64,000 nt of DNA from Gammaproteobacteria bacterium (GTDB lineage: Bacteria > Pseudomonadota > Gammaproteobacteria > Eutrophobiales > Eutrophobiaceae), in contig CBDEUK010000001.1 of assembly GCA_965243205.1 (NCBI GenBank), forward strand, positions 1 to 64,000, written 5' to 3'. The notes below the pieces were generated by a model. It made no database searches. It was given only the letters and a program-made list of their open reading frames with translations, and was not told the origin of the DNA. Positions 12,660 through 30,745 of the stretch are shown in pieces. The position numbers were made by a program, and so were the translations under genes. Within the stretch, counting starts at the first letter, position 1; every line of letters begins with the position of its first letter.

Positions 12660-12735
12660 TCCCCGATAGCTCAGTTGGTAGAGCGGGTGACTGTTAATCA
12701 CTAGGTCGGCAGTTCGAGCCTGTCTCGGGGAGCCA
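12660..12735 (+). tRNA. tRNA-Asn(GTT), prophage insertion target, intact
   Basis: TCCCCGA..TCGGGGA-G-CCA, anticodon loop CTGTTAA. Confidence 0.95.
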
Positions 12736-14265
12736 TACAACCTCCGATGGGAACTTTAGTTTCTTCGCGGTTAACATATCAGGCCTGAAGTAAATTATTG
12801 CTTTATCAGGCTTTAGTATAACTTCCTTCAGAACTATTTGAAGGAAGTTTCTTATTTTATTCACATTATTAGCTTCTTTAATAACATCAAATAAAAATAC
12901 TGCCATTTGATGAGCTTCTTCATTTGTTAAAGAAATATGCATTGGCTCTTCGTTCTCAAGCCTGTCTATGTTTGAACGAATTTTTACGATCTCTTGTTCG
13001 TTGTCATTCATATTTCTGACAAGCAGTATGCTATCAACCCCTTGTTGGTCTGACTGTAGAATTAAATCCATTAATTTTTTATTTCTAGTTTCTAATGTGT
13101 AAATTTTGGAATTTAACTTATCAATTTTTTCTTGTTGAAGAGCGGTCCAGTTTGCTGATTGGTTATTTAATTCATTAAAAACTTCTTGCATATTTTCTGG
13201 TGAAAATATTCTTTCGGTTACTTTGTTTATTAAAAAATTATCTAATTCTGAAGCCGTCACTCTTCTGTCTTCACAAGTTCCATTTTTTAAGTAGCCGCCA
13301 CAATTATAATAACTATATTTCCCAGACTTACCTGTTTCGATCATCATTGTTTTTCCACAACCATCACACCTAATTAATCCAGTAAAAAGATGGGAGCTAT
13401 GAGCCGAGCCGCATGAAGGTTTAGAAGGTGCAGCCTCGTCCATCATGGTTTGAACACGTATAAAAATATCATCATCGATAATAGCTTCATGTGATTTAAC
13501 TACTACCCATTCATCCTCTGGCTTTGGCCTTCCGGTTTTTTTATCTTTCTTATTAAAAACAATATATCCATTCACAGTTTTATTTCTTAATAACGAAGTA
13601 ATAGAGCATTTCTTCCATGTCTTACCTCTATTTGTTTTCTTTTGATCGTTTAAAATTTTAGCTATAGCTCGGGCTCCTAAACCTTCATAACGCATATTAA
13701 AAATTTCTTCTACTATATGGCGTTCATCCTCATTAACAGCTAACTTCTTTTTCTTTTTGCCAACTTCAACGGTTGCGTAACCAAAAGGAACGCCGCCGCC
13801 ATTATAAAAACCCTCGCGCGCATTACGAATCATTGACCTCATAGTGTCTTTTGATGTTTGCCTGGAATAATACTCATCCATTAATTCACGGAGACCGATA
13901 TTTAAAAATCTTGTGTCTGGATCGCTTCCAGCATCAAAAGATGCATAAACAATTTCAACACCAGCACACTCAAGACGGTGCCTGCATTGAACTGAAAAGC
14001 TTTGAGTTCTTGAAAACCTGCTGGTGGACCAGGTAATAAAATAATCAGGAAAACTTTTTTCGCAGTACTCAATTGCCTCCTCAAATTCAGGTCGATTTTT
14101 ATAAAACGCCGATTGACCGTCCTCCACAAACACGCGCAACACGTCAGCGTTCAAAGCTCTTGCCTTGTCTTTGCATCGTTCTATTTGTGAGTCTATTGGA
14201 AGCTCTTTTTCGGCCTGCTTCTGCGAGCTCACACGAACTTGAATAATCGCGGTCTTTCTAGTCAA
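12694..14265 (-). CDS. Large serine recombinase (integrase); 3' end crosses attL into the tRNA antisense strand
   Basis: VRVSSQKQ catalytic Ser, SRFSR, recombinase domain (PFGY), Zn ribbon LFTGLIRCDGCG..YYNC, coiled coil; TTG start after GAGG. Confidence 0.95.
   Translation of the reverse strand: MTRKTAIIQVRVSSQKQAEKELPIDSQIERCKDKARALNADVLRVFVEDGQSAFYKNRPEFEEAIEYCEKSFPDYFITWSTSRFSRTQSFSVQCRHRLECAGVEIVYASFDAGSDPDTRFLNIGLRELMDEYYSRQTSKDTMRSMIRNAREGFYNGGGVPFGYATVEVGKKKKKLAVNEDERHIVEEIFNMRYEGLGARAIAKILNDQKKTNRGKTWKKCSITSLLRNKTVNGYIVFNKKDKKTGRPKPEDEWVVVKSHEAIIDDDIFIRVQTMMDEAAPSKPSCGSAHSSHLFTGLIRCDGCGKTMMIETGKSGKYSYYNCGGYLKNGTCEDRRVTASELDNFLINKVTERIFSPENMQEVFNELNNQSANWTALQQEKIDKLNSKIYTLETRNKKLMDLILQSDQQGVDSILLVRNMNDNEQEIVKIRSNIDRLENEEPMHISLTNEEAHQMAVFLFDVIKEANNVNKIRNFLQIVLKEVILKPDKAIIYFRPDMLTAKKLKFPSEVVWLPETGSNCRPSD
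12720..12735 (+). repeat. attL core CTGTCTCGGGGAGCCA
   Basis: 15/16 identical to 59109-59124; equals the tRNA 3' end. Confidence 0.88.
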
Positions 14266-14708
14266 AGCCTGCGACCTCGATGCGCGAAAATTTTCGCGCG
14301 ATTTTTTAAAACCAAAACCTGAAGCCTATGTAGATATACAGGTACCCACCTAGGCATGTGAGAATGATTCTTATTACTGCCGAGCCCCCACCCCTTCAAC
14401 AAGCCAAGCATATCCAATGATTCTATGTATTGAACTGCGTAAAACTGAGAACAGAAGGAAGATAACTGGTTGATTCTACTAGTCAGTGATGCAAGTGAAC
14501 TGCGTATTATGTAATTACACGCAGTAAAGATTCTGTACCGTGAACTGTTATTGGCCGTTCTAAAGGAGATTTTCCAGAACCCGTGCAACCATCCCAAAAC
14601 ATCAGCAATACGTACACTATATATAATGTATAAGGGCACTCTATTAGATTTCTGTACCGTTAATGTAAACCGAAGCGCGTCTTTGGATAGGATATTTAGC
14701 ATTTAGTA

Positions 14709-15719
14709 TTACTTCTTGCGGAGTTCTTTGACTAAGTCTGTGACTGGTGTTTGAATCTTGTTGAGTGGATTGCCTTTATCTAAATCCTTTCGAAGCTTAC
14801 GCATGGCCATGTGGTTATATATATTTTGTGACTTAATATCTTGTTGACCCATGATGGTCATACGAACAGTCGGATCTATATCGCTTTCAGTAAGCTCAGT
14901 TCCGAATAGGTGGCGCACTGCATGCGGATGTAGCTGGTCCTCACGAATTCCCGCTGCAAGACCATGCTTTTTAATTATTCTATAAATACCTTTTCTACTT
15001 AAACGTGTGTTATCGCCATAGAATTCACTGGGCGGAATATTCCTGTCATGAGACTTTACAAATAACACCTGGTCGCCGTTAGGTAATAATCGGTTATAGT
15101 CTTCTAGCTCTGTACATCCAAGATATGCACGGACCATAGCCCATACCTCATCCGGTGCAGGTATCAACCTTTCGTTATCGCCTTTCTCATTAACCTTAAT
15201 AATGAGTCGTTCAATATCGTTCTCTTGAATAAAAACTAAACTCGAAACGTTCATATTCACTAGGCCTGATACACGCATACCGCAACCACCAAGAATAGAA
15301 ATAATCGCTGTATCTCTTATAGCCATAAAAGATCCGAGGCCTGGCTGCATTAACAACTTCTCGAAGTTCTTAAGGTGTATCTGGTTACCGACTCGGCGCC
15401 CTGCTTTTGGATGTTCTAAATGCTTAGAAGGATTTGACTTGATAAGCTTTCGTTTAGCCAAGTAGTCGTAAAATTTACGGATACACGAAACAACGATCTT
15501 CCTCGATGAAGGTTGCAAGCCAGCCTTATGCATGTGAATGCCAGTAAAGTACTCCAAGGTTTCATACGTCGCGGCCAGCATTGTTAGTTCTTCGCCCTGA
15601 CAATATGCATCCAACCTTTCAAGGTAGCCGCGGTATTTTCTGCTTGTTTCAATAGACAAACCTTCGCTGGTTTCAATGTAATTGCAGAAATGATTAATTA
15701 ATTTCATCGACTCATCCAT
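14709..15719 (-). CDS. Tyrosine recombinase (XerC/D-like, with core-binding domain)
   Basis: RDTAII..GCGMRVSGL, EKG, HPHAVRH, MGQ, NIY; start at 15719 after GGAG. Confidence 0.9.
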   Translation of the reverse strand: MDESMKLINHFCNYIETSEGLSIETSRKYRGYLERLDAYCQGEELTMLAATYETLEYFTGIHMHKAGLQPSSRKIVVSCIRKFYDYLAKRKLIKSNPSKHLEHPKAGRRVGNQIHLKNFEKLLMQPGLGSFMAIRDTAIISILGGCGMRVSGLVNMNVSSLVFIQENDIERLIIKVNEKGDNERLIPAPDEVWAMVRAYLGCTELEDYNRLLPNGDQVLFVKSHDRNIPPSEFYGDNTRLSRKGIYRIIKKHGLAAGIREDQLHPHAVRHLFGTELTESDIDPTVRMTIMGQQDIKSQNIYNHMAMRKLRKDLDKGNPLNKIQTPVTDLVKELRKK

Positions 15720-15769
15720 GTGAGGTTTCTCCAAAATTCACATCAAAAAAAATGGGACGGGGGTATTTT

Positions 15770-16140
15770 TGTGTCGGATTGTCGGATGGCAATGCAGCAA
15801 CCATGTAAGTGCATGAGTTTAAAGGTAATTGTTCAGAACGAAACATCCGACAAAAACGTTGGAAGATTATTGTTTTTGTTGGAATAAAATTTAACCAGTG
15901 GATAACTCTGTTGGAGTTAATTTCTTTGTATATCCCTATACTCTCTCTCTCTATCTCTTTATTTTTAAAAGAAAAAGAAGGATATAACCATAGTGCAACC
16001 GTAATATCCCTCAGTTGTATATATATATAATGTATGTTGTAGAAAAACAGAGAAATGTTGTAGATTTTTGCAAAAATGTTGGATTGAAAAATGTTTTCAA
16101 TCAAACACTTAACGTCAAAATAGTGGCATATCCAACAAAA
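15770..16140. other. Putative phage replication origin (iterons around an AT-rich core)
   Basis: About 10 TGTYG(G/T)A motifs flanking (CT)n/(TA)n DNA, directly downstream of the primase-helicase gene. Confidence 0.55.
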
Positions 16141-16245
16141 TAAGCTATAGCCTCCGATTCCAAAATGTAAAAAGTGGCTCGATTCGTGCCAATGCGCCCT
16201 GGCTGGTGTGTTTTTTCGGGTTTTCATTTTAAGGGGTCACAGGGG

Positions 16246-18972
16246 TTAAGGAAGAAGTTCTTCGGTAGCCTTTGGTGATGGATCCAGGCCGAACTTCTTT
16301 AGTTTATCTATATCGAGGGCTAACATACGCCCCACACGCGCTTTATTAATGGTCTTCTCTACTTTATCCGTGATAACTACGTTAGCGCTAATCATCTGCT
16401 CTTTTAAGATGCTAGAACTCTTCACTGGAAATGAATTAGCAAAGTCGCGTAAGTGCATATTCGTTTTAATATGATTCATCATATCGGTAGCACGAATAAA
16501 TAAAGCCTGATGCGACACGCCTTCTACTGCATGACTATCCCAAGTGTAATGATGGCGATATCGCCCTGTATCGATCTCTGAAAGGATGACTTCCATTGCC
16601 CAAACCCAAGGCTCACGCTCGGCCTCAGTACTGGCAATGTGGTTATTCATTTCTTTTACTAAACCATCAAAAAAACCGTGCTCAGAAGGGTTTATGTCAG
16701 CGAAATCGCATAGTAACCACCAAGAAGTAAGCACAGCAGCGTAGTTTGTCGTCATCCTACGCGCGCCATCATCGTTATCCTTGGCCATAGATTTATGTAA
16801 CATCTTGCCGCAGCACTGACGGTGCATTTTTAACACACGCTCTTTACTTAACGACGTTAAATACTGCAGCCACTCAAGAACTGGAAAGCACGACAAATTA
16901 TCTGGCAACATATCGCCTTTTTTATTCGATAAATTGGTACGTACCACCTTACCGATCAAACTTTTAACAGGAACATCCTCGCCAGCTAATAACACAGGTG
17001 CGCATAGCAAGAATTCCGTCATTTTTGAGCCACGTTTAGTACTTGTATATTGGTAAGCCTGCTGTAGTGCGCTCACTGCTTCATCAATTCGTTCTTGCTT
17101 TCCTGCTGAAATTTCTTCCCAGCCGACCGGATGCGAAGTGTGACTTAATGTAGTTAATATTCTAAAAGCAGAAAGCATCGATTGTTGGCCAAACACTGTC
17201 ATACCCAACGTGCCTTCGATACGCTTGCACAACGTGGACTTACCGGCGCCCTTATTTGCTTGCATGATGCAATGAGGGTAATAACCTAAGAACGCTTTTA
17301 AATGGCCACCCAAGCCCCAAACTAAAGGAATTAAAGCAGCACAATCTTTAAATGTATCGGCATAAGCTTTAATAACGTTTTTGGCTTGGTATTCTGGTGC
17401 TGAAGGAAAACTGAGTGAAGAGTAAGGGCATTGTTGGTCAGGGTCTGTAAAATAGCTATCCTTGCCTTCATTTACGGTCAATTTCCCATTCAACCACCCT
17501 AATCCAACAAAGTTAATGGCCTCTCGTGCACCTAAATGTGCTCCACGTTCCATGATACTCACTAAACGTGAGAATGCTTTCTTATTCCAAACGCTGCCAA
17601 ACTTGGTCCAATGATCAATGTTATGAAGCTGCTCATCTTCATACACTTTGCGTTTCAAATCGTAACCATGCCTTGGTATCTGCACACTGACAGCAAATAA
17701 TATTCGTGGCATTAAATCAGGCTGACCAGAGAGAACACTGGCAGAGCCCGCTACTTTTACTCGAGATAAACTGGCAATTCGAAAACCGCAGACATCTGCA
17801 TAAGTAAATTTTTCACCACCTTGATCATCTTTATCAACATTAGCAACAAAAGTTGTAAAGTCTTCTTTAACACGATACCGCCAGTACTGGCCCCAATCGA
17901 GCGCAGGCAGAAACACTTTTGCTCTACCCATCATTTGATCAAAATCACCAGGTAAACCTTGGAAGGCCCACGGCTCAATTTTTTTCAAGAGGCTTTTTAA
18001 TTCAACAAGATCTTGATTCTGCAAAATCTCATTAACGTCGTTATATTCCCACTCACCCTGGTCCACCATCATCGCGGAAATATTGTGACCAGTTAATATG
18101 TCATAAAGACTGTAAGCAGCTTCCCTACCTGGTGATCGATTTTTATCATTTGGCTCATCGTTATCAAAACAAATATAAATTTGTTTACCTTGGAACCATC
18201 GCCAATCAATACCATCGAGGCCGCTGGCCATGCGCACAGCAATAGCGGAGGTATAAGGCATCTTGCATGCCTCGATCGATAAAGCATTAATGGAAGACTC
18301 TACAACATAAACCGTTTTAGCTTGCGTTAAGCGCTGCAGATCCATAAACCACGGGTAACCAAACTTATCACCTTTGGTTTGTGTTTTTACATTGCCATTC
18401 AAACTAGGATCTATATATCGGTTATCAACCGCTACTACCTTGCCAGGGTTTAATGTACGAACAATAAATGAAACAGCATTGCCGCCATAACCTACTTCAT
18501 TAGGCTTTACTTTCGGGTTAGTCCATTCATTAAAACCAACTGAGCCACAATTAAGCGCTAGGCGCACGGTTTCTTCAGGAATATTTCTTTCTTCAACTAA
18601 ATAATTAATCGCTTTGTCTTTATATTTTAAACATTGGTCCGCCAACCATTCGATGGTGTCCTTTTGTTTTGGGGTCACAGGGGCGCGTGATTGCTCGATA
18701 CCAAACATATCATGCAGTTGTTTCATTGCTTCTTTAAAATCACAACCCATGACGTACATATAAAGATCAATGCAACTGCCATGCGCATCGTCATCATCAC
18801 CCTGAGAATAATCTCGCCAGTACTTACCATCCTTTTTAATTTCTAAGGACGGGCTTTTGTCATCATGATGAGGGGATTTGTAATTACCTTTGTTGCCAGG
18901 ACGTTCTATACCTAATTGCTCGGCTAAATCATGGCAGTTAATGATTTTTTTTAATTCTTCTGCAGTTGCCAT
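16246..18972 (-). CDS. Primase-helicase (Zn-finger-like + TOPRIM + P-loop)
   Basis: SPHHDDKSPSL..GSCIDL; VYVVESSINALS and CFDND TOPRIM motifs; ANKGAGKST Walker A. Confidence 0.88.
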   Translation of the reverse strand: MATAEELKKIINCHDLAEQLGIERPGNKGNYKSPHHDDKSPSLEIKKDGKYWRDYSQGDDDDAHGSCIDLYMYVMGCDFKEAMKQLHDMFGIEQSRAPVTPKQKDTIEWLADQCLKYKDKAINYLVEERNIPEETVRLALNCGSVGFNEWTNPKVKPNEVGYGGNAVSFIVRTLNPGKVVAVDNRYIDPSLNGNVKTQTKGDKFGYPWFMDLQRLTQAKTVYVVESSINALSIEACKMPYTSAIAVRMASGLDGIDWRWFQGKQIYICFDNDEPNDKNRSPGREAAYSLYDILTGHNISAMMVDQGEWEYNDVNEILQNQDLVELKSLLKKIEPWAFQGLPGDFDQMMGRAKVFLPALDWGQYWRYRVKEDFTTFVANVDKDDQGGEKFTYADVCGFRIASLSRVKVAGSASVLSGQPDLMPRILFAVSVQIPRHGYDLKRKVYEDEQLHNIDHWTKFGSVWNKKAFSRLVSIMERGAHLGAREAINFVGLGWLNGKLTVNEGKDSYFTDPDQQCPYSSLSFPSAPEYQAKNVIKAYADTFKDCAALIPLVWGLGGHLKAFLGYYPHCIMQANKGAGKSTLCKRIEGTLGMTVFGQQSMLSAFRILTTLSHTSHPVGWEEISAGKQERIDEAVSALQQAYQYTSTKRGSKMTEFLLCAPVLLAGEDVPVKSLIGKVVRTNLSNKKGDMLPDNLSCFPVLEWLQYLTSLSKERVLKMHRQCCGKMLHKSMAKDNDDGARRMTTNYAAVLTSWWLLCDFADINPSEHGFFDGLVKEMNNHIASTEAEREPWVWAMEVILSEIDTGRYRHHYTWDSHAVEGVSHQALFIRATDMMNHIKTNMHLRDFANSFPVKSSSILKEQMISANVVITDKVEKTINKARVGRMLALDIDKLKKFGLDPSPKATEELLP

Positions 18973-20090
18973 TATTGAGTACTTTTATTAGTTGCGGTTT
19001 GGTCACCTTCGGTTTGATTTTCGATATGCATAATCGCTCTACCAATTAGCTCTGGTATTTGTGGAACTACTGCATTACCTAACGCTTTCAATCTAGCCAC
19101 CCTTTGGGAAATCCCATCATCTCTGTGACAAAGTGCGGGTTCAGTCGGTAGTTCGATATGTCGGAATCCGTCGAAAAGTTGATCGCATCCTCTAAGGTAT
19201 TCGTCATGGGATTGCGTCCTGTCTTCTCCATTGCCTCCTTGCTTCTCGCCCCCTTGTGATCTCGAGTTGTTGGAGTTGGTAATAACTTCACTGCTGTTGG
19301 TAAGTCGCACTCCTGCCCTTTCAAACTCCTGCCTGAACTTCCCTTGTAATCCCTCGCTTGAGGGGTTGGTAACATCTTTAATGCTGTTATTAATCCGTTT
19401 CCACTTTTCTTGCTTGAGCCCTTCTTGTTGTAGTTGCCGTGTAAGGTTGGCGTAGGTATCAATTGTCGACAAACTTGATCTCTCAAGTTGCTGTGCTTGG
19501 CTCTGCCTGGCCGTGTTTCCGTCATTTCTTTTTCTATGGCCTTGTCTGACTTCGGCGGTAGACTGTCCATCGTATTGGGCGTTGCCAATAATCCAAACTC
19601 TGTCTCGTCTATGGATGGCATTGACGGCACAAGCTGGAATAACAAACGTTTGCCAGGTGTAGTTCGCGTCTTCCAAGTTAGATAACACATTGTCGAGCCC
19701 CATATTGATGTGGCCAGCAACATTCTCGGCAATAACCCATCGAGGTCTGATACTTTTAATAAGTCGATACATTTCCGGCCAGAGATGACGGTCATCTTCT
19801 TGGCCTCTTTGCTTTCCGGCAACACTGAAGGGTTGGCATGGGTATCCCCCGCAAATAAGTCCGATGTCATTGATGCCGTCATTAATTAATTTCTCTTTAG
19901 TAAGCTGTTTAACATCTTCATAAATTGGAACGTTAGGCCAATGCTTTTTAATGATGGATTGCGGATACTTTTCAATTTCACAAAACGCAACTGTTTTAAA
20001 TCCTGCTCGTTCAAGACCAAGACTAAATCCACCAATACCACTAAACAAATCAAGAACATTAATCGCTAACAACCTCAGTTTGAAAAACAT
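18972..20090 (-). CDS. C5 cytosine DNA methyltransferase, alpha frame (motifs I-VIII and X)
   Basis: DLFSGIGG, GGYPCQPFS, ENV, HRRDRVW, LKALGNAVVPQ; motif IX absent from this frame; true start may be a few codons downstream. Confidence 0.9.
   Translation of the reverse strand: MFFKLRLLAINVLDLFSGIGGFSLGLERAGFKTVAFCEIEKYPQSIIKKHWPNVPIYEDVKQLTKEKLINDGINDIGLICGGYPCQPFSVAGKQRGQEDDRHLWPEMYRLIKSIRPRWVIAENVAGHINMGLDNVLSNLEDANYTWQTFVIPACAVNAIHRRDRVWIIGNAQYDGQSTAEVRQGHRKRNDGNTARQSQAQQLERSSLSTIDTYANLTRQLQQEGLKQEKWKRINNSIKDVTNPSSEGLQGKFRQEFERAGVRLTNSSEVITNSNNSRSQGGEKQGGNGEDRTQSHDEYLRGCDQLFDGFRHIELPTEPALCHRDDGISQRVARLKALGNAVVPQIPELIGRAIMHIENQTEGDQTATNKSTQ
19088..19882 (-). CDS. Nested alternative-frame polypeptide of the methyltransferase (TRD-like repeats + motif IX)
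   Basis: 264 open codons nested in the MTase gene; LPTP..RDxKG repeats; RLNPHFVTEMMGFPKGW resembles motif IX. Confidence 0.7.
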   Translation of the reverse strand: MTASMTSDLFAGDTHANPSVLPESKEAKKMTVISGRKCIDLLKVSDLDGLLPRMLLATSIWGSTMCYLTWKTRTTPGKRLLFQLVPSMPSIDETEFGLLATPNTMDSLPPKSDKAIEKEMTETRPGRAKHSNLRDQVCRQLIPTPTLHGNYNKKGSSKKSGNGLITALKMLPTPQARDYKGSSGRSLKGQECDLPTAVKLLPTPTTRDHKGARSKEAMEKTGRNPMTNTLEDAINFSTDSDISNYRLNPHFVTEMMGFPKGWLD

Positions 20091-20352
20091 TAAGACCGTT
20101 TATTAATCTTTCATAATAATGCTCTCGCATTAACAAATGATTTTCACAATCTACTTCCCCGGTTATGTCGTAGTACCTTCCATCAATTAAAGTAATAACA
20201 TGATCGCAATCGTAATAAGCTTCTGCTTGAGGAAAAAATCGTTTCAATATCCAAAAGAAATCTAAGCACTGACCCTTTGTATACTTGTCGATCGCCTCTG
20301 GCACTATCGTCCGTATCTGTTCACAAAATTGTTCTGGTGTTTCGAATGTCAT
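20059..20352 (-). CDS. Phage hypothetical protein (GQC..HV..YYDI pattern)
   Basis: Coupled ORF in the early operon. Confidence 0.6.
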   Translation of the reverse strand: MTFETPEQFCEQIRTIVPEAIDKYTKGQCLDFFWILKRFFPQAEAYYDCDHVITLIDGRYYDITGEVDCENHLLMREHYYERLINGLNVFQTEVVSD

Positions 20353-20540
20353 TTCTTATTTTTAAATCTTTTTGAGTTCAAAAATTCACGTAGTACATCT
20401 TGGCAATTGCCATATCTAAGTTTCATGGCGTAAGCAAACGCTGGATCGTATTGTTTATCTTTAACCCACTGCATGTATTGCTCATCACAGTAATCAACTA
20501 ACTCTTGAATCTGTTTGTGCGTCGTGTAACCTTTTGGCAT
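20349..20540 (-). CDS. Phage hypothetical protein
   Basis: TAATG/ATGA coupling to neighbours. Confidence 0.55.
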   Translation of the reverse strand: MPKGYTTHKQIQELVDYCDEQYMQWVKDKQYDPAFAYAMKLRYGNCQDVLREFLNSKRFKNKK

Positions 20541-21094
20541 TAAGCAATGACACTTAAATGCTTTCTGTCAACGGACTGCATATCAACATGAAATTGAACA
20601 TGCTCATCAATATATTGCTTTGGCCACATTTCTAAATCACCTGCGCGTTCACAATATTCTTGAGCTTCTTCTTTTGTCCATACTCTTGCCTGACGCACAT
20701 CACAAACATATCCACAATTATCAAACTTCCACCAAACCATGCTATTACCGACATAGCCTCTAGTTTTATCGTGGAGGTAGTACAATTCTTCCCTAGTGTG
20801 TTCGATGGCTTTGCCAGGTTCAGCCTTTCTCCAATCAGGCCAATCACGATTCTTATTTTTTTCTAATTTTGCTTTTAACTGCTCTGCAATTTCTTCTGGC
20901 TCAAACCCTGCCCGCCAAGCTCCATCCAAAGCCAACATAACTAAATCGATCCACTCTTCGAGATCGAGAGGTGTTTTCTTTATTTCTTCTAGTTCCTTTT
21001 TTATATGATCAATCAAGCCATCGGTTCTAACTCCTGGACCAAAAGTCTTACAAGAAAACTCTCTTTGTTCTTTTAAATGTTCAATTAAATTCAT
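20540..21094 (-). CDS. DUF550/MazG-like dATP/dGTP pyrophosphohydrolase domain protein
   Basis: FSCKTFGPG..IDHIKKELEEI..LEEWID..DGAWR..KNKNRDWPDWR. Confidence 0.75.
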   Translation of the reverse strand: MNLIEHLKEQREFSCKTFGPGVRTDGLIDHIKKELEEIKKTPLDLEEWIDLVMLALDGAWRAGFEPEEIAEQLKAKLEKNKNRDWPDWRKAEPGKAIEHTREELYYLHDKTRGYVGNSMVWWKFDNCGYVCDVRQARVWTKEEAQEYCERAGDLEMWPKQYIDEHVQFHVDMQSVDRKHLSVIA

Positions 21095-21426
21095 ACAGAC
21101 CCCTTAGAAAAATGATTAAACAAACGTCGAAAAAAATAACGTCTAACAATAGAAACAACCGTAAAAATACAAGTAAAAATAAAAGCTTCTTTCTCGTCTT
21201 TTATGTTAAGAAAATTACTTAAGTACATTGTTAGATACCAAGCGATAACAAAACCAGTTCCTAGATCGGCAACTGTTTCGAGGAATGATTCCAGGCGTGT
21301 CTGAACGCCTTTTGTCACTTTAACTTCATCTTTACAATCATTAGGACAATACCAATTTGCAGAGTGAGCGCTATGCCCTGCAAGACATTCCAACCTTGAT
21401 CCGCAATGATTACAAACTAATTTCAT
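21091..21426 (-). CDS. Phage membrane protein with N-terminal Cys cluster
   Basis: CNHC..CPNDC then two hydrophobic helices ending RRYFFRRLFN. Confidence 0.6.
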   Translation of the reverse strand: MKLVCNHCGSRLECLAGHSAHSANWYCPNDCKDEVKVTKGVQTRLESFLETVADLGTGFVIAWYLTMYLSNFLNIKDEKEAFIFTCIFTVVSIVRRYFFRRLFNHFSKGSV

Positions 21427-21660
21427 TTTTTTTGTTTCCTCTTAATTAAAGCTCTATCTACCTTGTCGATTAAACTGTCGTCACGTTAGCCCTAAAGGTA
21501 TTGATAGAAGCGGTTTATAGGGTCTACACCAAGAAGGATAGCCTCGTGTTATTCAAGTTTAACTAGGCCTCCCCTTCTAATCTGGTACTTGCAATATTGT
21601 TCAAAGCTTGACCTTCTAATAAATATTGCATTTTCCCTTCGAGTAACCGACTTACAGACT

Positions 21661-22098
21661 CTATCGATATTTTCTCATCTGCGCTGTCCAACGCAGCTTT
21701 TCTTTGGTTGACTTGTTTTTGTTTTTATCGTTAATAAAATTCATCATTAATATTTTTTTTCTCTGTTTGCTGATACGGTATGAGTTATAAGTTTTTCTTG
21801 TGCCATTAAAGCCTCGCGGCTTAATAGCGTTCGAATGGAATAACGGCTGCCTAGCCTCTTGGTAATAATTAAGCCACCAACAACGGCCTCTGCTTTCTTC
21901 CCATTCAATTAAAATCTGCTCGATAGATTTGCCGGTATGCTTGGCATAATGTGCGGCTCTATAAATTACCCATTGAAAATGGGTATATAATTCTTTCTTG
22001 TCTCGAAAACTTCTTTTGTCAGTAACATCGCGGATATAAGATGCCTTTAAAGACTTATAGCCTTCTGACTGCGATATTTTTTTCCAATCAAGCTGCAT
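21661..22098 (-). CDS. Phage hypothetical protein
   Basis: 145-aa ORF in the operon direction. Confidence 0.6.
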   Translation of the reverse strand: MQLDWKKISQSEGYKSLKASYIRDVTDKRSFRDKKELYTHFQWVIYRAAHYAKHTGKSIEQILIEWEESRGRCWWLNYYQEARQPLFHSNAIKPRGFNGTRKTYNSYRISKQRKKILMMNFINDKNKNKSTKEKLRWTAQMRKYR

Positions 22099-22100
22099 AC

Positions 22101-22367
22101 TTAATGCTTATTAATATCGCCAAGTATTTTTTGATCTATCTCTTGCCCAAAAGAGGCAATCTCGTTGTTTATGTCAGTCATCAACTTCATATCCCTGTCT
22201 GTAGGTTCAGAGTCATCTGACATGTGCATCAATATGGCGTTAAACAAAACAGAAGCTCCGGCAAAAAAGGCCTGTCTTGTTTCGTTAACTTGGGTTTCGC
22301 TTGCATCATTTGGCACAGCCAATAATCTATATTTTTCCCACGCCTTCTCTATATGTTTTTTCATCAC
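22101..22367 (-). CDS. Phage hypothetical protein
   Basis: Coupled ORF; Q..ETRQAFFAGA pattern typical of small phage early proteins. Confidence 0.6.
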   Translation of the reverse strand: MMKKHIEKAWEKYRLLAVPNDASETQVNETRQAFFAGASVLFNAILMHMSDDSEPTDRDMKLMTDINNEIASFGQEIDQKILGDINKH

Positions 22368-22714
22368 ATTACCCTCATTTCTTTAAGATCTAATACAACT
22401 TGATTGATTAATAAGTCATTCATATTGAACGAACGAGTATTTACCTGGTTGAACCGTCTGTCATAACCAACAATCGTTAAATATCTAGTTTGTGGCTGTA
22501 TACTCACTACATTCAAACACCAGTAAATTGCACAGTTACTTTTTAAATATTTTTCAAGACCAGGTGTTAAACCCATTCTTGAGCGGTCGTAACATCGCAC
22601 TTGCATTAAACCAACATGGTCATAAACTTTTACTTCAAAACAATTATCATCTACCGCATACATACAAAAATGCATCACGCATGAAATTAACCAATTAGCA
22701 AAAACTTCATTCAT
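22364..22714 (-). CDS. Phage hypothetical protein
   Basis: ATGA overlaps on both sides. Confidence 0.55.
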   Translation of the reverse strand: MNEVFANWLISCVMHFCMYAVDDNCFEVKVYDHVGLMQVRCYDRSRMGLTPGLEKYLKSNCAIYWCLNVVSIQPQTRYLTIVGYDRRFNQVNTRSFNMNDLLINQVVLDLKEMRVM

Positions 22715-23013
22715 ATAGTTTCACCTGGTTTAATCTGGTAGTTATATTTTTGTTTCTTATTTTTTGATTTCGCGATTCGCGTCATAACGATTTTAGGATT
22801 TAGACCTGAAGAACGAGGGTTCTTTCGATGTGCTCGTATTTCTTTTGCGATAACCGGCAACTGATATTTGTGTTCTAAAACATAAGAAATAAAATCAAGC
22901 TGCTCATCAGCAACATCATCGGCAATTCTTTCAATAGTTGTGGGTGTAATAGTTTCTTGGGCAAGAGACCAAAAACGTATGATTGACTTAATATAATCTG
23001 AATCGAGTCTCAT
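22711..23013 (-). CDS. Phage hypothetical protein
   Basis: Coupled ORF. Confidence 0.55.
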   Translation of the reverse strand: MRLDSDYIKSIIRFWSLAQETITPTTIERIADDVADEQLDFISYVLEHKYQLPVIAKEIRAHRKNPRSSGLNPKIVMTRIAKSKNKKQKYNYQIKPGETI

Positions 23014-23018
23014 GATGG

Positions 23019-24674
23019 TTAATCTAAAAACAAAATAGACAAAGCTTTAACGCAGCCAGACTGAGGGTACTCAATTAAGCCTAAAGTTTTTAAACTACTC
23101 ACAGCATTATTAAAACTGCCGCTACCAAATGAATAATTAGATGCAATAGCAACGTCGTCTTTATCTATTTTTTCTGGATATGCATCTAATATCGGCTTGA
23201 GTACACGTTGCTGCGGGCCAGATAAACGCATCATGATTTTCAGGTGTAAAGCTTCAGTAGTAACTTCTGAATCTGGCATTTCTGCTTCATCCCTGCCTAA
23301 CGCTGTTAAGGCAACAGTGCTAGGCTTTGGATATTCGATCTTCCCTGCAGTACGTAGTGAACTCACTGCGTTATTAAAACTGCCGCTACCTGGTTTATAA
23401 GAAGCAATGAACGCTACCTGTACCTTTGAATAAGGAGGCTCTATGCCAGTAGACTCCCACCAGGCAATCGCATCGAGTATTCGTTTTTGTGGTCCGCCAG
23501 TTACTGCTGTAGCTCTAGTGAAAACACTAGGGCTTTCGATTTTGTTTATTGTTTGACTGGGAGTGTCTAGTAATGCGACAGCATTTTTAGCAGTTACTTG
23601 TATCTTGTTGAGTGCTTTTATAAGTGATTCTGTGGATGAGTCACGAGAACTCAAACCTTCTAAAGCTTCTTTAACTTTTTTCTGAACTTCTGCCTCGCTG
23701 TATCCATTGGCTTTTTTATTAGCTTTATTGAGCTCACGCTCAAGACTTTTTATTTTCCGCTTTAAGGCTTCAGGATCGTTATCTTTTGCTTTATCGATCA
23801 CTTCTTGCATCGCGCCTTCAAGCTTTTGCAAATCAACCGGCTTAAGCTCAACAGACTGCCTAACCTCGCTAGTCGGAGTAGCAGAACCGTCAAAAGTTAT
23901 TTTTTTATTAAAACGGGTTTTCTTAAAATTATTCACCCAAGCTGGGGACCAGAAAAAACAGTCCCCGTTTTTTAGTTCAGCTAATTCGTTAAGCTGTTCT
24001 TTTACATTTGCGCCGGCATAACTAACCCAATCTTGAATGGCCTTTCTTTCGTGAGCTCCCACCAATTGAAATACGATCAATGGCTCCACCTGGTTCAGCA
24101 CTTCTTTATTAACAGATTGCGGCCGCTGCGAAATCAAACTTACACCAATGCCATAATTACGACCTAAGCGAACAATATCCTCTAAGGCTCCAAGCATACG
24201 TTCTTCACCCTTCGCGCAACGTTGAGGAATAAAAACTTGAGATTCTTCAATGAATAAATGAAGTGGAATACGTCGAGATTTTTGTCTGAAAAATAGTTCT
24301 TCTGCAAAATCAGTAACAAATACTTTGCGCTGATTTTTGCGAAACATTGAAACATCAATAACTGCAGAAGAGCCCGTGTTCAAAACAAAATCCGCTACTA
24401 ATTTTCCTGATGTATGCTCTAAAGGTATATCGCCATGATTCCCACCAAGCACAGGGATATCAAAGTTGCTAGCTTTCTTACCGGTTTTATCTAAACGTAA
24501 TCCGTACCAATTACCCACAGGATCTAGAACAATAACTTGTTGCTTGGCAATTAAAAACGATTCAGCCATTTTCATTGAGCCATATGTCTTGCCGCTACCC
24601 TTTCGACCAATAAAACCAAAAGTTTGAGTAATAGCATCATCAGGCAAAGCAATATTTTTAAATGCGTATTTCAT
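23019..24674 (-). CDS. HerA/FtsK-like (DUF87) ATPase with coiled coil and duplicated C-terminal winged-helix-like domains
   Basis: GRKGSGKT, VLDPVG, FIEESQ, GRNYGIG..SQRP; repeated GSGSFNNAVSSL..G.IEYP. Confidence 0.8.
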   Translation of the reverse strand: MKYAFKNIALPDDAITQTFGFIGRKGSGKTYGSMKMAESFLIAKQQVIVLDPVGNWYGLRLDKTGKKASNFDIPVLGGNHGDIPLEHTSGKLVADFVLNTGSSAVIDVSMFRKNQRKVFVTDFAEELFFRQKSRRIPLHLFIEESQVFIPQRCAKGEERMLGALEDIVRLGRNYGIGVSLISQRPQSVNKEVLNQVEPLIVFQLVGAHERKAIQDWVSYAGANVKEQLNELAELKNGDCFFWSPAWVNNFKKTRFNKKITFDGSATPTSEVRQSVELKPVDLQKLEGAMQEVIDKAKDNDPEALKRKIKSLERELNKANKKANGYSEAEVQKKVKEALEGLSSRDSSTESLIKALNKIQVTAKNAVALLDTPSQTINKIESPSVFTRATAVTGGPQKRILDAIAWWESTGIEPPYSKVQVAFIASYKPGSGSFNNAVSSLRTAGKIEYPKPSTVALTALGRDEAEMPDSEVTTEALHLKIMMRLSGPQQRVLKPILDAYPEKIDKDDVAIASNYSFGSGSFNNAVSSLKTLGLIEYPQSGCVKALSILFLD

Positions 24675-25129
24675 TATTTTCTGAGCCTTCTTTTTTCTTC
24701 TTCGTACTCGTGTCTTATATTGTTAAAAATGGCGCGTATCATGGCCCATTCATCTTCCCAATCTTCAACAGGGTAAGTTCTCATATCAAAAGCCTCTTGC
24801 CTGATAACATTGGATAATAGTTTTTGATATTCAGGCGTTGCCGGCTCATATAAAATGTCGTCCATATCTTTTTCTAACCACGGAAACATGTGTTTAAACC
24901 TTTCAGGGTTAGAGGCCGCTTTAAACGCTAAAACTAAACGAGTAATTCTGTTGGTACCAACTGATCGACGTGTTCTTAAAACGAAGACCATAATTAAACA
25001 ACCAATCACTGCGTTAACCATTAGGGAAACCAAAGCCACCAGAGCAGCTAACAAAAGAAGGGCTATACCTCCCCAATAGAAAACTTTTAAAATCAATTCA
25101 TATTCCATACAGTTCAAACTCTTTTTCAA
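24674..25129 (-). CDS. Phage membrane protein
   Basis: Long N-terminal hydrophobic segment. Confidence 0.55.
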   Translation of the reverse strand: MKKSLNCMEYELILKVFYWGGIALLLLAALVALVSLMVNAVIGCLIMVFVLRTRRSVGTNRITRLVLAFKAASNPERFKHMFPWLEKDMDDILYEPATPEYQKLLSNVIRQEAFDMRTYPVEDWEDEWAMIRAIFNNIRHEYEEEKRRLRK

Positions 25130-25295
25130 AATCTTTTTGGGTCCATATTTTTTTTAACTTGCTGCGTTCCTGTTGTTGTTCACTGGTCCGCAAAATAACC
25201 TCGGGTGTGGGGCCATGCGTGTTAGCCATTAGCTCTAATAAGTCACCAGTTTTTATATGCTGGTATGTGGCACCGACATTGAGAGTTAGCATCAT
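25098..25295 (-). CDS. Phage hypothetical protein
   Basis: VGATYQHIKTG; coupled ORF. Confidence 0.5.
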   Translation of the reverse strand: MMLTLNVGATYQHIKTGDLLELMANTHGPTPEVILRTSEQQQERSKLKKIWTQKDFEKEFELYGI

Positions 25296-25738
25296 TAATA
25301 ACCGGCTGTAACTTCAACGCGCATTGGGAGCCTGTCTTTTGCTAATGAATCAATGTCACGAGCCAATCCTATTAACCACTGTAAATTAGGTATTATGTTT
25401 CTTGGTAAGTAATCAGGAAGGCCTATAAATAAAATTTCATCTGTCTTGGACTCAGCTTTCCTAATGTCAGCCGTCGAATAAAAACAATAAACAATATCTG
25501 CTGGTATATCGTTGGTTTTATCGAACTGCATTGATGTATAATAAGTCCACTCATCGACATTGAGTCCGCATTCTTCGTGAAACTCTCGAACCATAGCCTC
25601 ATGATGACTCTCTCCAAGCTCTACTTTTCCACCTAAACCATTAAGCTTCCCTTTTTGCCAGTCAGGATAATTTTTCTTAATAAGTAAAACTTCATTCATA
25701 TCTTTGTTAAAACAAAATCCTAAAACATATTCATTCAT
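25295..25738 (-). CDS. NUDIX hydrolase
   Basis: Nudix box GGKVELGESHHEAMVREFHEECGL. Confidence 0.9.
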   Translation of the reverse strand: MNEYVLGFCFNKDMNEVLLIKKNYPDWQKGKLNGLGGKVELGESHHEAMVREFHEECGLNVDEWTYYTSMQFDKTNDIPADIVYCFYSTADIRKAESKTDEILFIGLPDYLPRNIIPNLQWLIGLARDIDSLAKDRLPMRVEVTAGY

Positions 25739-25756
25739 AATAGATTCCTCGATTAA

Positions 25757-26425
25757 TCAAGCTGCTGCTTTTTGTTTCTCATTGACGCTTTGTCTAAAAT
25801 ACTCAGGAGTTACCCAACAAGAATGCTCTTCCAGTGTTAAGGTGTTTCCATGAACAACGACTGCAGGGACGCCCGTTAAAACTAATTGAATGTAAGCCAT
25901 GTGAACGCATCGCAAATCGACATCCACACAGGTAACACTCAATCGTTCACGATAATCCACATCTAATTTATGTAAGCGCTCAGCTGCAGCCAAAACAATT
26001 CCGCCAGAACCGACAGCAGGCTCATTTAAAGTAATTTTCTTATCGTCTTTATTAAGAGATATTTCATCGCTTATAGTCATGGAAGCCATTAACTGAGATA
26101 AGGTATAAGGAGTGAAGAACTGACCCGAATCTTTATTAGAAATTTCCATTTCCATAAACAATTCACCCAGCCAATCATTAAAGCCATGCTCTTGAAACAA
26201 AAGAACTAACTTCGACAAACAAAAACAAAATTTATCCAGCTCCTCTCTTTTATAATTGCCGGTTATATTAAGGTAAGCATCCTCACGTTCTTGCCAATAC
26301 TCTGTTTTTATCTGGTTTGCAAAAGCAATTGCGGCCATTTCTACCCAATCACGAAACACGGCATGAAGATCACGGGAATGAGCTATACCCTTTAGCGCTT
26401 TAATGATCTCGTTCTTAAGATGCAT
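25757..26425 (-). CDS. Short N6-methylase/HsdM-like protein lacking the NPP(Y/F) motif
   Basis: [22 protein letters not shown], then the protein ends. Confidence 0.8.
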
Positions 26426-26693
26426 GGCTTCTAAGGCTTAACGTGTTTTCAGTTTTAACGTGATGCGGCTTGTGATTATCGGTTCTTCCATTACCATGCC
26501 CCTTCTCTCCAGTTTTTAATTTTCCATCGTTTTCATTGCGAATACGTTCGGCTATTTCTTCACGATGCACGGGCACTTCTTTTGGTGCGTCAACACCAAT
26601 GCGCACCTGGTTGCCTCGAATAGCTAATACAGTGACGTTTATATCATCACCAATACAAAGTGTTTCGCCTGTTCGTCTAGTTAATATCAGCAT
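26415..26693 (-). CDS. csrA: Phage-encoded CsrA/RsmA RNA-binding protein with C-terminal extension
   Basis: [44 protein letters not shown]. Confidence 0.93.
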
Positions 26694-26704
26694 ATTGTTC
26701 TCCT

Positions 26705-26956
26705 TTATAAATTGTTTACTACATCTTTGGGTTTATTTAAATTTTCATCACTCTGTTCTTGTTGTTGTTTCTTCAATTCTTCTGCAGACAAGAGAATTAA
26801 TTTGTTTTGTTTGGCTGCATCTGAATTTAAAAAATCTTTTGCAACGTATGCATTAGTATGGGCATCGGTCTCATCAAGACCTTTTTTGTTTTGCATTTCT
26901 TTTGCAAAATCTGCTAAAGCTTTTTTTAGTTGCGATTCGTTAAAACACCAATACAT
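26705..26956 (-). CDS. Phage hypothetical protein
   Basis: ORF in the operon direction. Confidence 0.55.
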
Positions 26957-27218
26957 TTTTAGGCACCGTTACCATTGTTTTTATTTCTGGAAATTCTTCT
27001 AACAAAGCTGCTTTTAACTTTAAGAACTCTGGCTCCTGCAGCATTTTTTTAAGTTGAGGCTTTTCATTTTTTATATATTTCCAAGCCAATTTTTTATTTT
27101 CTTCACTTAGATCTTCTAACGTGACAAAAACATCACCACTGCGAACTGGGAGCTTATAAACCTTGACAGGCAAAGGTTTGCCTTCTGTGTCTTCACTGGA
27201 ATCTTTAAATTTGCTCAT
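26940..27218 (-). CDS. Phage hypothetical protein
   Basis: Likely start MSKFKD at 27218. Confidence 0.5.
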   Translation of the reverse strand: MSKFKDSSEDTEGKPLPVKVYKLPVRSGDVFVTLEDLSEENKKLAWKYIKNEKPQLKKMLQEPEFLKLKAALLEEFPEIKTMVTVPKNVLVF

Positions 27219-27453
27219 TCTGTTTTTCCATTTGAAATACATAACGATCAGTTTCATTCCAAAACAGGTAATAAATAAATGCGTAATAGATCAGCACTGG
27301 AACAAAGAACACGATATAAAAAAACATCACAAAAATATTACGTTCAAAAGGCAAATGTGCTGGCATAAAATGAAAAATCTTTAGTGAGGCAGCGCCAATC
27401 ACAAACCAATAAAAAAGAACAATGCATGTCACAATGAATTCAAAAGTACTCAT
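27205..27453 (-). CDS. Small two-TM membrane protein
   Basis: AGGAGG RBS before MSTFEF at 27453; two hydrophobic helices. Confidence 0.55.
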   Translation of the reverse strand: MSTFEFIVTCIVLFYWFVIGAASLKIFHFMPAHLPFERNIFVMFFYIVFFVPVLIYYAFIYYLFWNETDRYVFQMEKQNEQI

Positions 27454-27678
27454 ACGCCCTCCTTTAAAATAAAGCCGAGCTTGTACACAACGGGGAGGCA
27501 TTTATCTAAACCAATCGTGTGGGTCTGCTCGGCAACAATCACACTTGTAACTATCATGTCATTGCCCCTGCCCCAGTTGTTTCATATCCATAAGCCTTAT
27601 TACTGAAGCGGAGCAAGAAATGCATAAGGCGTACGAGAGAACGCAAGACCAGGGCTGCTCGCATTCTGCTTGCAAAAT

Positions 27679-28275
27679 TCACGATGCTTGCTCCAAAGCA
27701 AGTTCAACCTCTTCTTTATCTGGTGCGGTATAAATCGTGGTGGAATTAATACTGGCATGACCAAGAGCTTCTTTAGCGATAAGCAAAGCAGAGTCAGAAG
27801 TTGAATATTTAAGGATCCGTTTAGCGAAAGTGTGGCGCCACCAATGAGGCGAGGCTTTAAACTCAAAACCTGCTTGTTCACACCAGTAATGCATACGGTC
27901 CTGATAACTGCGAACAGATAACGCTTGCCCTCTACGACTCATAACTAATGGTCGTGAAGGTATTAAGGCGTAACCTTGTTTCTTTAAAACCTTTAATAAA
28001 TCTGTAAGCGCTTCGCGAGCACTTTTGGTTACATACAGTTCATGTTTCTTGGCTCGCTTTTGGATCTCGCCTTCTAACTTTATGTAATTAGTACGAATCG
28101 CTTCTTGGGCATGACCAACCGTTAATAAAGAAAAAGCATTAATACGCAAACCGGTATGACGTAAAGCCCGCATCCAAGCGTAATCACGCTTAGCATGAAT
28201 ATCGTTAACACGCTTAACAGTGTTAAGTAATTTCTTTTCTTCAGCTTCGGTAAAATAGGTTCTAAATGATTTCAT
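27679..28275 (-). CDS. Small tyrosine recombinase (catalytic domain only, FimB/FimE-sized)
   Basis: RDYAW..TGLR, QKR, PHWWRHTF, LGH, TTIY. Confidence 0.9.
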   Translation of the reverse strand: MKSFRTYFTEAEEKKLLNTVKRVNDIHAKRDYAWMRALRHTGLRINAFSLLTVGHAQEAIRTNYIKLEGEIQKRAKKHELYVTKSAREALTDLLKVLKKQGYALIPSRPLVMSRRGQALSVRSYQDRMHYWCEQAGFEFKASPHWWRHTFAKRILKYSTSDSALLIAKEALGHASINSTTIYTAPDKEEVELALEQAS

Positions 28276-28277
28276 AA

Positions 28278-28658
28278 TTATGCATTAATAATTTCATCGT
28301 TCATTTCTGCAGCTTCCTCTGAACCTATAAATTCAATAAAAGCTTCAATGGGTTTAGTACCGCGCACTTTCACAGCGCGAACTGTTACCAAACAAGGCGC
28401 GCCGTATACTCTTAAATCAAAATATTTTTTCGGGATGGGAATGCGTGAACGACCGTTTAAATGATCATCGATAATTAATACCGGTACGATTTGACCTTGT
28501 ATAACCACAACAAAAATTTCTAATGAAGTACGACTGTTGATTCTTATCTCTTGCAGAAGAGGAACAAAGTAACGAGACAGAGAGCCTTTAGGTTTATAAG
28601 TGCTAGATGTTACGTGAATGACTTCATTTCTATCTTTCATTAGAAGCATCTCCGCCAA
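28278..28658 (-). CDS. Phage hypothetical protein
   Basis: ORF in the operon; start uncertain. Confidence 0.5.
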   Translation of the reverse strand: MAEMLLMKDRNEVIHVTSSTYKPKGSLSRYFVPLLQEIRINSRTSLEIFVVVIQGQIVPVLIIDDHLNGRSRIPIPKKYFDLRVYGAPCLVTVRAVKVRGTKPIEAFIEFIGSEEAAEMNDEIINA

Positions 28659-28818
28659 TTAAAAACTTTTCACAAAGCTCTTCTTTAAAGCAAGCGAAGA
28701 TAATCGAACCGCAATTCACATATTGATCATCGCCAACATTATCTTCAACGCTGTTAATGCCACGCTTGTTTAGTGACTTAGGAACTGGGTTTTTGACTTT
28801 CACTTGTTTAGATCCCAT
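28630..28818 (-). CDS. Phage hypothetical protein
   Basis: Overlaps the cII stop. Confidence 0.4.
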   Translation of the reverse strand: MGSKQVKVKNPVPKSLNKRGINSVEDNVGDDQYVNCGSIIFACFKEELCEKFLIGGDASNER

Positions 28819-29299: not shown

Positions 29300-29352
29300 T
29301 GTGATTAGCCTCCAAAGTTCACATTGTGTGTAATGAGGCGACTGGCTATATT
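29298..29352 (+). promoter_or_regulatory. Putative CII-activated establishment promoter (pE-like)
   Basis: Inverted half-sites ATTGTGA (29298) and TCACATT (29319) 21 bp apart; TTGTGT-17-TATATT. Confidence 0.5.
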
Positions 29353-29515
29353 TATACAGGCTAGAAATGTTATCCTAGCGCTGAGGTGAAACGGTGACCT
29401 AACCAGTAACCTCGCCTTCTCTGTGCCGGAGTTGCAGCTTCGGCACAGAACCTAAAAATCTAAACGATCAATCTGTCAAACTTATGGCTAAAAAAGCCAA
29501 ATTTAATTATTAAAT

Positions 29516-29668: not shown

Positions 29669-29670
29669 GT

Positions 29671-29753: not shown

Positions 29754-29754
29754 T

Positions 29755-30696: not shown

Positions 30697-30745
30697 AGGA
30701 CAGGGAATGTTGCCAGACGATACCCAATGATAAAAGTTTTTCCTT

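Follow-up and report, generated by a model that had tools for sequence, protein, structure and literature searches.

We analysed a 64,000-nt stretch of DNA from a gammaproteobacterium (GenBank assembly GCA_965243205.1, contig CBDEUK010000001.1, positions 1 to 64,000; hereafter, the window), in which a siphovirus-like prophage of 46.4 kb abuts the 3' end of a tRNA-Asn gene. In our judgement it is likely that this prophage was integrated there by its own large serine recombinase (LSR), that the phage attachment site (attP) lies inside the LSR gene itself (int), and that the two isoforms of the enzyme produced in this way, one in the free phage and one in the prophage, differ in function. The prophage junctions, the two forms of the gene, their occurrence throughout the family and the architecture of the attachment site are all legible in the sequences that we compared.

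An integrase gene ending inside a tRNA gene

In its prophage form, the LSR is encoded by an open reading frame (ORF) of 523 codons, and the C-terminus of the protein reads ..VVWLPETGSNCRPSD (Table 1). The gene overlaps the tRNA-Asn gene by 42 nt in antisense orientation, and the final 13 residues, WLPETGSNCRPSD, are encoded by antisense tRNA sequence, with a tryptophan codon (TGG) opposite the CCA end and the TAA stop codon opposite the anticodon loop. A sequence-only reading of this DNA, made without database searches, had already proposed that the integrase frame runs through the left prophage end (attL) and stops within the tRNA gene; both the ORF and the tRNA detected by ARAGORN agree with it. 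At the other end of the prophage, the last 16 nt of the tRNA recur at 59109-59124 with one mismatch and are followed by a hairpin and a T-run. The minus-strand frame that starts at 59124, WLPKTATLGTKSIVIPLPVNLYPPALRYG (29 residues, stop codon at 59035-59037), is in frame with int, and its translation bears out the earlier proposal that joining attL to the right end (attR) yields a protein of 539 aa. The size put forward for the excised circle, 46,389 bp, is also arithmetically right, being the spacing from repeat to repeat. The tail encoded at the far end fits the family pattern WLP-x4-L-x-T-x6-LP, and this segment is predicted to join the int frame only in the excised circle.

The same tRNA-Asn gene is found downstream of the same aminotransferase gene in nine related genomes, and a near-identical hairpin occupies the corresponding position next to L147, the prophage most closely related to it. 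If the crossover took place as predicted (see below), the last few nucleotides of the tRNA gene in the lysogen would be supplied by the phage. Contigs (Logan) of four sequencing runs covering positions 11800-13800 break inside the tRNA gene, a stretch common to other organisms in the sample; one loose end, at 12735, belongs to a contig with seven differing letters and therefore comes from another organism.

The protein has the three domains of an LSR according to Pfam: Resolvase (PF00239), Recombinase (PF07508) and Zn_ribbon_recom (PF13408). The match to PF00239, the serine-nucleophile catalytic domain, covers residues 7-152 (E 7e-20). Residues R11-V12-S13 are near-invariant, and the zinc-ribbon cysteines C300, C303 and C322 conserved, in an alignment of 42 sequences of the family; the protein also matches the integrase family phrog_95 (E 1.7e-89). 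An AlphaFold2 (AF2) model of the window LSR, with a mean predicted local distance difference test (pLDDT) score of 85.4 and values below 50 for residues 500-523, contains the long paired helices (356-408 and 412-437) of a coiled-coil insertion. The AF2 model of a phage-form homologue (P0004) resembles solved LSR-DNA complexes (serine integrase, Bxb1, phiC31 and LI; Foldseek E 2e-21 to 3e-12), to which its sequence by itself has a weak match.

Two tail classes across the family

A search with the LSR protein retrieved 160 homologues, of which the best 42 were aligned. We then collected 129 related loci, of which 49 came from genomes and 80 from IMG/VR; a scan of genome contigs with the single LSR protein had detected no relatives, and it was an alignment-based scan that found them. 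Among the best 42 homologues, Trp-Leu-Pro is near-invariant, and after it the sequences diverge into two classes: a short tail resembling ..GSNCRPSD and a long tail with a conserved pattern. With W-L-[PL] as the anchor, 111 of the 129 loci could be placed; the remaining 18 run off their contig, are truncated or have other tails. The anchored loci comprised 63 with the short antisense-tRNA tail, 47 with the long tail and one that was cut off.

The surroundings of the gene differ between these classes. In 40/63 short-tail loci, the opposite strand carries tRNA-Asn(gtt), whose CCA faces TGG exactly; a further 18/63 end before a tRNA could fit, and 5/63 have only a 46-nt fragment of the tRNA-Asn 3' end. 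None of the 47 long-tail loci has a tRNA within 120 nt. A homologue of the gene for a 317-aa protein lies just downstream of int in 32 of the 40 long-tail loci with enough flank, as opposed to 0 of 34 short-tail loci. This distribution of the tRNA and of the 317-aa gene indicates that the short tail marks the integrated state, and the long tail the state of the phage. Since the arrangement is present in 110/129 related loci, its occurrence in the window is not due to chance.

Close relatives found in both states show where the two classes part. Three short-tail loci (L092, L094 and L101) are each 99.2% identical over 500 aa to one long-tail locus (L113), and at the DNA level they match it fully through TGGCTCCCC and unrelated from position +9 onwards. 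Using the 317-aa protein as a probe, we located the far prophage end of five integrated relatives. All five carry TGGCTCCCC followed by an open in-frame tail, which in four of them fits the family pattern and ends in (K/R)AA. The central proposal of the sequence-only reading, that the attachment site lies inside the serine integrase gene and that recombination swaps its C-terminus, is thus upheld by the two tail classes and by the near-identical pairs; the conservation of the attR-side tail in related prophages, which it had suggested checking, was largely found as well. As judged from these comparisons, integration would move int and the ~315-aa gene to opposite ends of the prophage. A cultured Microcystis phage, vB_MaeS-yong1, possesses the same module (Xer-like recombinase, small gene and LSR) and a tail of the same build, ..VRSRVNWRPEGAMLRT... 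This phage also carries both of the tyrosine recombinases described below for the window.

Several loci depart from the common arrangement. Some family members end antisense in other tRNAs, namely Leu(caa), Arg(cct) and Met(cat) (L028, L046 and L109, with L152 = MT855965 noted alongside), and the core codes for WRP instead of WLP in L046 and in yong1. The LSR family has been retargeted to other tRNAs with attP still inside int. The five prophage-form loci that abut only the 46-nt 3' fragment of tRNA-Asn (L031, L085, L093, L110 and L121) look like tandem islands at one tRNA; in L110, the DNA past the fragment has large reverse-strand ORFs, none of which is the 317-aa phage gene. A genome of a related genus (G007) has an intact tRNA-Asn (C1:249293-249375) and, 28.5 kb on, a 45-nt copy of its 3' end with 98% identity (277820-277864), which probably marks a further island of the long-repeat kind at this tRNA.

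Crossover position and attachment-site architecture

In six prophages, including that of the window, the uninterrupted identity between attL and attR extends over 9-14 bp and always includes TGGCTCCCC (GGGGAGCCA in the tRNA sense); for the two ends in the window it is 9 bp. When attL was compared with attP in near-identical pairs, identity extended to +8 in the four pairs of Alteromonas type, and in the two remaining pairs to +10 or +15. These alignments bound the predicted crossover to a 9-bp core, tRNA positions 68-76. The mismatch between the two repeats of the window, C at 12726 and T at 59115, lies just outside this core. As all nine related genomes have C at this position of tRNA-Asn, the T at 59115 derives from the phage and the crossover occurred 3' of the mismatch. 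The sequence-only reading had left the residue after WLP as either E or K. This codon falls beyond the stretch to which the crossover is bounded, and the phage-form enzyme is accordingly predicted to read WLPK.

We measured the symmetry of the site on 46 distinct phage-form sites. They share a conserved inverted repeat, GGTTCNNAG(TAAGG) / (CCTTA)CTNNGAACC, placed 11-24 nt on each side of an axis at +5 of TGGCTCCCC. The outer arms are 68% complementary at this axis, against 40% at the next best one. An inner inverted repeat was not detected in these 46 sites, in which complementarity near the core reached at most 0.44 and did so at unrelated axes. Overall, the phage site covers 49 bp; it has conserved arms 21-27 bp apart and, at 16-24 bp from the axis, a motif that contains GTTC. 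The pentamer GAACC, antisense of the T-loop, occupies +25 to +29 in attP and +20 to +24 in the tRNA arm, exactly 5 bp closer. For the Listeria LI integrase, the text of Rutherford 2013 on this point (PMC3783163) places the zinc-ribbon motif at bp 16-24 in attP and 11-19 in the bacterial site (attB). The P, P' and B arms of the window family present this type of site, with an attP that is an imperfect inverted repeat of ~50 bp and a motif 5 bp closer in attB. For the window, as for its closest relative, the axis falls at +4.5, between T and C, and this symmetry predicts TC (GA in the tRNA sense) at 12730-12731 as the central dinucleotide, which in LSR sites is non-palindromic and shared by attP and attB.

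The site is at the same time coding sequence. Its outer arms encode V-(H/P/R)-S upstream of WLP and L-L-(R/G)-T downstream, and the core encodes W-L-P itself; these residues are conserved because the DNA there is the predicted binding site. In the AF2 model of the phage-form homologue (mean pLDDT 85.3), the attP-coded stretch 505-525 falls below 50. On this model, it would be a disordered linker able to absorb the constraint imposed by the DNA.

The distal tail of the phage-form enzyme

The distal part of the long tail, with a consensus LP-x-R..R/K-A-A in most relatives, behaves differently. Among 46 distinct long tails, 32 end in Ala-Ala and 42 in Ala, with 20 combinations of codon and stop, and the LP motif (Leu or another hydrophobic residue followed by Pro) is written with 23 codon pairs. 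The distance from the tail to the next gene ranges from -32 to +286 nt. The retention of these motifs through many codons and at variable distance to the next gene argues that the distal tail is under protein-level selection. It may well be a module with a function, present only until the phage integrates.

For P0004, the AF2 model gives the tail block 531-540 a pLDDT of 85, and a short strand is present at 528-532. A prediction of the complex between LSR body and tail scored 0.55, with 0.02 for the best control; the runs agreed in at least 73% of contacts and the pLDDT of the partner was at least 48. The mark that we applied is passed by 58/80 solved complexes and 2/110 mismatched pairs, with 7/80 of the former and both mismatches passing it at scores of 0.60 or lower. 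The tail may dock on the enzyme and influence the control of direction by the coiled coil. ClpXP recognises C-terminal Ala-Ala, and by analogy with ssrA-type signals the terminal Ala-Ala of the tail may act as a degradation signal.

Proposed mechanism and alternative explanations

The mechanism that we propose starts from a phage attachment site of ~49 bp within the 3' end of the LSR gene, in which TGG is the antisense of the tRNA CCA and strand exchange would take place inside the 9-bp core. Integration would split the gene, so that everything after WLP is replaced by 10 antisense-tRNA residues and the anticodon loop supplies the stop codon; in the excised circle, the LSR would regain its tail of ~25 residues. 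The phage-form tail could dock on the enzyme, serve as a C-terminal Ala-Ala degradation signal, or both, and integration would thereby change the stability or the directionality of the LSR. That the two isoforms differ functionally is what we infer. A more far-reaching version, which we hold as tentative and rather unlikely, is that the reaction toggles the enzyme: the circle form with its docked Ala-Ala tail would be short-lived or locked in the attP x attB reaction, and the tail-less prophage form would be stable and either competent or primed for the attL x attR reaction. The direction would then be written into int by the last reaction, and a separate directionality factor would hardly be needed, if at all.

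Several observations sit uneasily with this interpretation. A homologue of the Xer-like tyrosine recombinase encoded near the LSR gene occurs upstream of it in 102/129 loci (tblastn), and in a check of five complete records without one nearby, all hold a PF00589 gene somewhere (5/5). In the attachment site, the host-side B' arm of attR has no recognisable motif in 6/6 prophages, the symmetry axis of the family falls on a base (+5.0) and not between two, and co-variation between the arms is thin (3 G-C versus 35 T-A pairs, and 8 mismatched). No gene for a recombination directionality factor, which LSRs need for attL x attR but not for attP x attB, was recognised in the prophage, the same result as in the sequence-only reading. 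As for the tail, docking on the LSR body is only faintly suggested by the predicted complex, and 14/46 distinct tails do not end in AA. The tail of the window is one that ends differently, in ..LRYG, and the tag explanation may therefore not apply to this phage.

The co-conservation of the tyrosine recombinase means that gene content cannot decide which enzyme acts; the architecture of the site can. Were the Xer-like neighbour the integrase, it would be by chance that the site lies at the end of the LSR gene, and some other role (inversion, resolution or excision only) would fall to the LSR. This is very unlikely, even though it is tyrosine integrases that published accounts present as the known tRNA-targeting enzymes, and even though, besides the co-occurrence just described, the identical 9-bp core could in principle hold an overlap region of 6-8 bp. 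What the site displays is of another kind: attP has no conserved inverted repeat beside the core, the spacing of its arms and its total span are of LSR size, and the 5-bp shift of the motif between phage arm and tRNA arm is an LSR hallmark. A Xer-type tyrosine recombinase needs two arms of ~11 bp around a 6-8-bp spacer, and no such pair of arms flanking a spacer is conserved in the 46 phage-form sites. The neighbouring enzyme is, moreover, Xer-like and devoid of an arm-binding domain, and ~2 kb separate its gene from the site, which lies within the LSR gene itself. Of the tRNA, the phage carries a copy of no more than 9-16 nt, whereas in tyrosine-type islands at this tRNA the copy has 45-46 nt. 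The sequence-only reading had counted integration by a tyrosine recombinase among the outcomes that would overturn it, and did not mention this neighbour; an attP of LSR type disfavours that outcome in silico. The site architecture thus makes it probable that the LSR, and not the Xer-like neighbour, performs integration and excision on LSR-type sites. We give even less credit, indeed hardly any, to the idea that the repeat at 59109-59124 is a chance match, with the true prophage end elsewhere and the int ORF merely running into the tRNA. The repeat has, it is true, only 16 nt, one of them mismatched, and is missing from the 20 largest repeat families found by a repeat search of the window. However, a host terminator hairpin stands next to it, as is the case at the most closely related prophage; 82 nt inward of it begins the gene that in free phage genomes comes after int; the frame read from it gives the conserved tail pattern of the family; and five other prophages have the same arrangement.

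A different alternative accepts the LSR as the integrase with attP in its gene and holds that the tail swap is neutral, the tail residues reflecting DNA constraints and the two isoforms being alike. Indeed, LL[RG]T in the proximal tail and V[HP]S upstream are encoded by the attP arms and vary with them, the prophage isoform must work in excision without the tail, the tail of the window lacks the -AA end, and among the 33 phage-form loci with a downstream ORF called, 13 have an ORF start that overlaps the int stop. Nevertheless, the distal tail, beyond the attP arms, still keeps LP and the terminal Ala-Ala through many synonymous codons and at variable gene distance. In the AF2 model this part reaches a pLDDT of 85, compared with less than 50 for the linker, and the tail stays open in 5/5 related prophages, although it is not translated there as part of int. 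We consequently regard neutrality of the swap as unlikely, and favour integration by the LSR with two functionally different isoforms.

Prophage and neighbouring genes

Beyond the recombination module, the prophage encodes a primase, a C5 methyltransferase, a portal protein and head morphogenesis proteins, together with a tape measure protein, a J-like central tail fibre, minor tail proteins and a CII-like activator. The Xer-like recombinase upstream of the LSR aligns end to end with the XerD model, with a score below the cut-off of the model. The ATG of the 317-aa gene overlaps the stop codon of the far-end tail by 8 nt, and its product had no match in Pfam, PHROG or NCBIfam. Between the tyrosine recombinase and the LSR there is an ORF of 146 aa (14262..14702, minus strand) without match in Pfam or PHROG and without homologue in the 129 loci. 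It is, for this reason, probably not a gene, and we discarded it as a candidate directionality factor on the same grounds. At the equivalent position, the yong1 phage has a gene annotated as 'middle operon regulator'.

Table 1 Coordinates of the integrase, tRNA, attachment-site and prophage features in the window.
Feature	Position	Strand	Basis or remarks
tRNA-Asn(GTT)	12660..12735	+	ARAGORN; intact in the lysogen
LSR, prophage isoform, 523 aa	12694..14265	-	ORF, Pfam, PHROG
Predicted attL	12711..12755		Family consensus; B arm T-loop motif AGTTCGAG, 12711-12718; P' arm ATGGGAACT, 12747-12755, within int
attL copy of the 9-bp common core	12727..12735		attL/attR comparison; GGGGAGCCA in tRNA sense, TGGCTCCCC in int sense
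Prophage body, siphovirus-like	12736..59115	- (nearly all genes)	Spacing between the repeats 46,389 bp
Xer-like tyrosine recombinase, 341 aa	14709..15734	-	PF00589 + PF02899; 0.4 kb upstream of the LSR
Second tyrosine recombinase, 198 aa, catalytic domain only	27679..28275	-	phrog_216, phrog_1; XerC-like
317-aa gene	58089..59042	-	ORF; next gene behind int in the circle
Tail-coding segment of the phage-form integrase	59035..59124	-	Translation
Predicted attR	59095..59138		P arm TGTTCCTAG, 59095-59103; B' arm is host DNA after CCA
attR copy of the 9-bp common core	59116..59124		attL/attR comparison
Hairpin and T-run after the displaced tRNA end	59125..59165	+	Host; taken as the original tRNA-Asn terminator

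A second hairpin, with a 13-bp stem and a T-run (12820-12849, plus strand), lies within the int coding sequence, 85 nt past the CCA, and could end the transcription of tRNA-Asn in the lysogen. We considered a phage-supplied terminator for the re-formed tRNA as a trait of the whole family and rejected it, as a hairpin with T-run was present in just 25/63 prophage-form and 14/47 phage-form loci, at scattered offsets. Elsewhere in the prophage, a 44-nt element occurs in two copies that are 95% alike (40362-40405 and 52453-52496); each has a GC-rich hairpin between A- and T-runs, and they look like bidirectional terminators. A 734-aa protein of the tail region (30746-32950) has repeats with a period of 165 nt that match PHROG families labelled 'regulator of chromosome condensation', and the 3' part of the J-like gene (given as its N-terminal coding end, 33294-33612) contains 27-nt tandem repeats.

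Significance

Serine integrases are major tools for genome engineering, and the control of their direction is an active structural question. The family described here adds a tRNA target to these enzymes. As the target, approximately the last 25 nt of tRNA-Asn, is near-invariant across Beta- and Gammaproteobacteria, they might integrate DNA in many bacteria without a pre-installed landing pad. In this family the attachment site doubles as coding sequence: its predicted DNA-binding arms spell conserved residues, and a disordered linker would absorb the constraint. The isoform switch built into the gene could, in turn, set the stability or the direction of the enzyme.

Comparison with known systems

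In canonical LSRs (phiC31, Bxb1, A118/LI and SPbeta), attP is not known to lie inside the int frame and the targets are mostly protein-coding genes. The window family shares with them the domain set, the fold, an attP of ~50 bp with an attB of ~40 bp, and an outer motif 5 bp closer in attB. It differs from them in having attP inside int, the 3' end of a tRNA as target and a C-terminus that depends on the state of integration. It also differs from the tRNA-targeting islands of tyrosine recombinases (Islander type), since the site in the window has no inner repeat and 9 bp of uninterrupted identity, and the tyrosine recombinase gene is ~2 kb away.

The integrase gene of the Sulfolobus virus SSV1 is split and inactivated by integration, whereas in the window family a complete serine recombinase remains. 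The SSV1 enzyme is, besides, an archaeal tyrosine recombinase. What both have in common is an integrase gene that extends across attP, a feature noted for Mx8 and SSV in a passage of PMC4383910. The closest parallel to the swap itself is found in the Myxococcus phage Mx8, where, as the relevant text of PMC6070905 describes, attP is within the int coding sequence and the gene, on integration, receives a new 3' end and yields an altered enzyme (IntP/IntX). The sequence-only reading had cited Mx8 and SSV1 as tyrosine integrases with attP within int. The crossover site inside the int frame and the altered C-terminus are thus alike in Mx8 and in the window. Unlike the LSR, with its simple 49-bp site, the Mx8 integrase is a tyrosine recombinase, and in the window family the replacement tail is an antisense tRNA and the arrangement is common to more than 100 loci. 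In the mycobacteriophages BPs and Brujita, according to the portion of PMC3694055 that deals with them, attP is in a reading frame, integration removes a C-terminal degradation tag and the integrase is tagged too. Viral and prophage proteins differ there as they do here, but in those phages it is the repressor gene that is interrupted, and their integrase is of the tyrosine type, whereas here the integrase gene itself is interrupted and a tag role of -AA is putative.

For serine integrases, the 2015 Islander paper states, in the part covering them, that they are not known to use tRNA genes. Our full-text literature searches, which covered main texts, yielded no description of a serine integrase with attP in its own gene at a tRNA, and only one predicted tRNA site for a serine integrase, that of the Paracoccus phage vB_PamS_Pami6. 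This phage has a serine recombinase and a predicted tRNA-Met site (PMC6536676) and is likened to the window family by description alone; the text on its integration mentions neither attP inside int nor two isoforms. An attP inside int with a changed C-terminus is already known for the tyrosine integrase of Mx8; in the window and its relatives it is combined with a serine integrase and a tRNA target.

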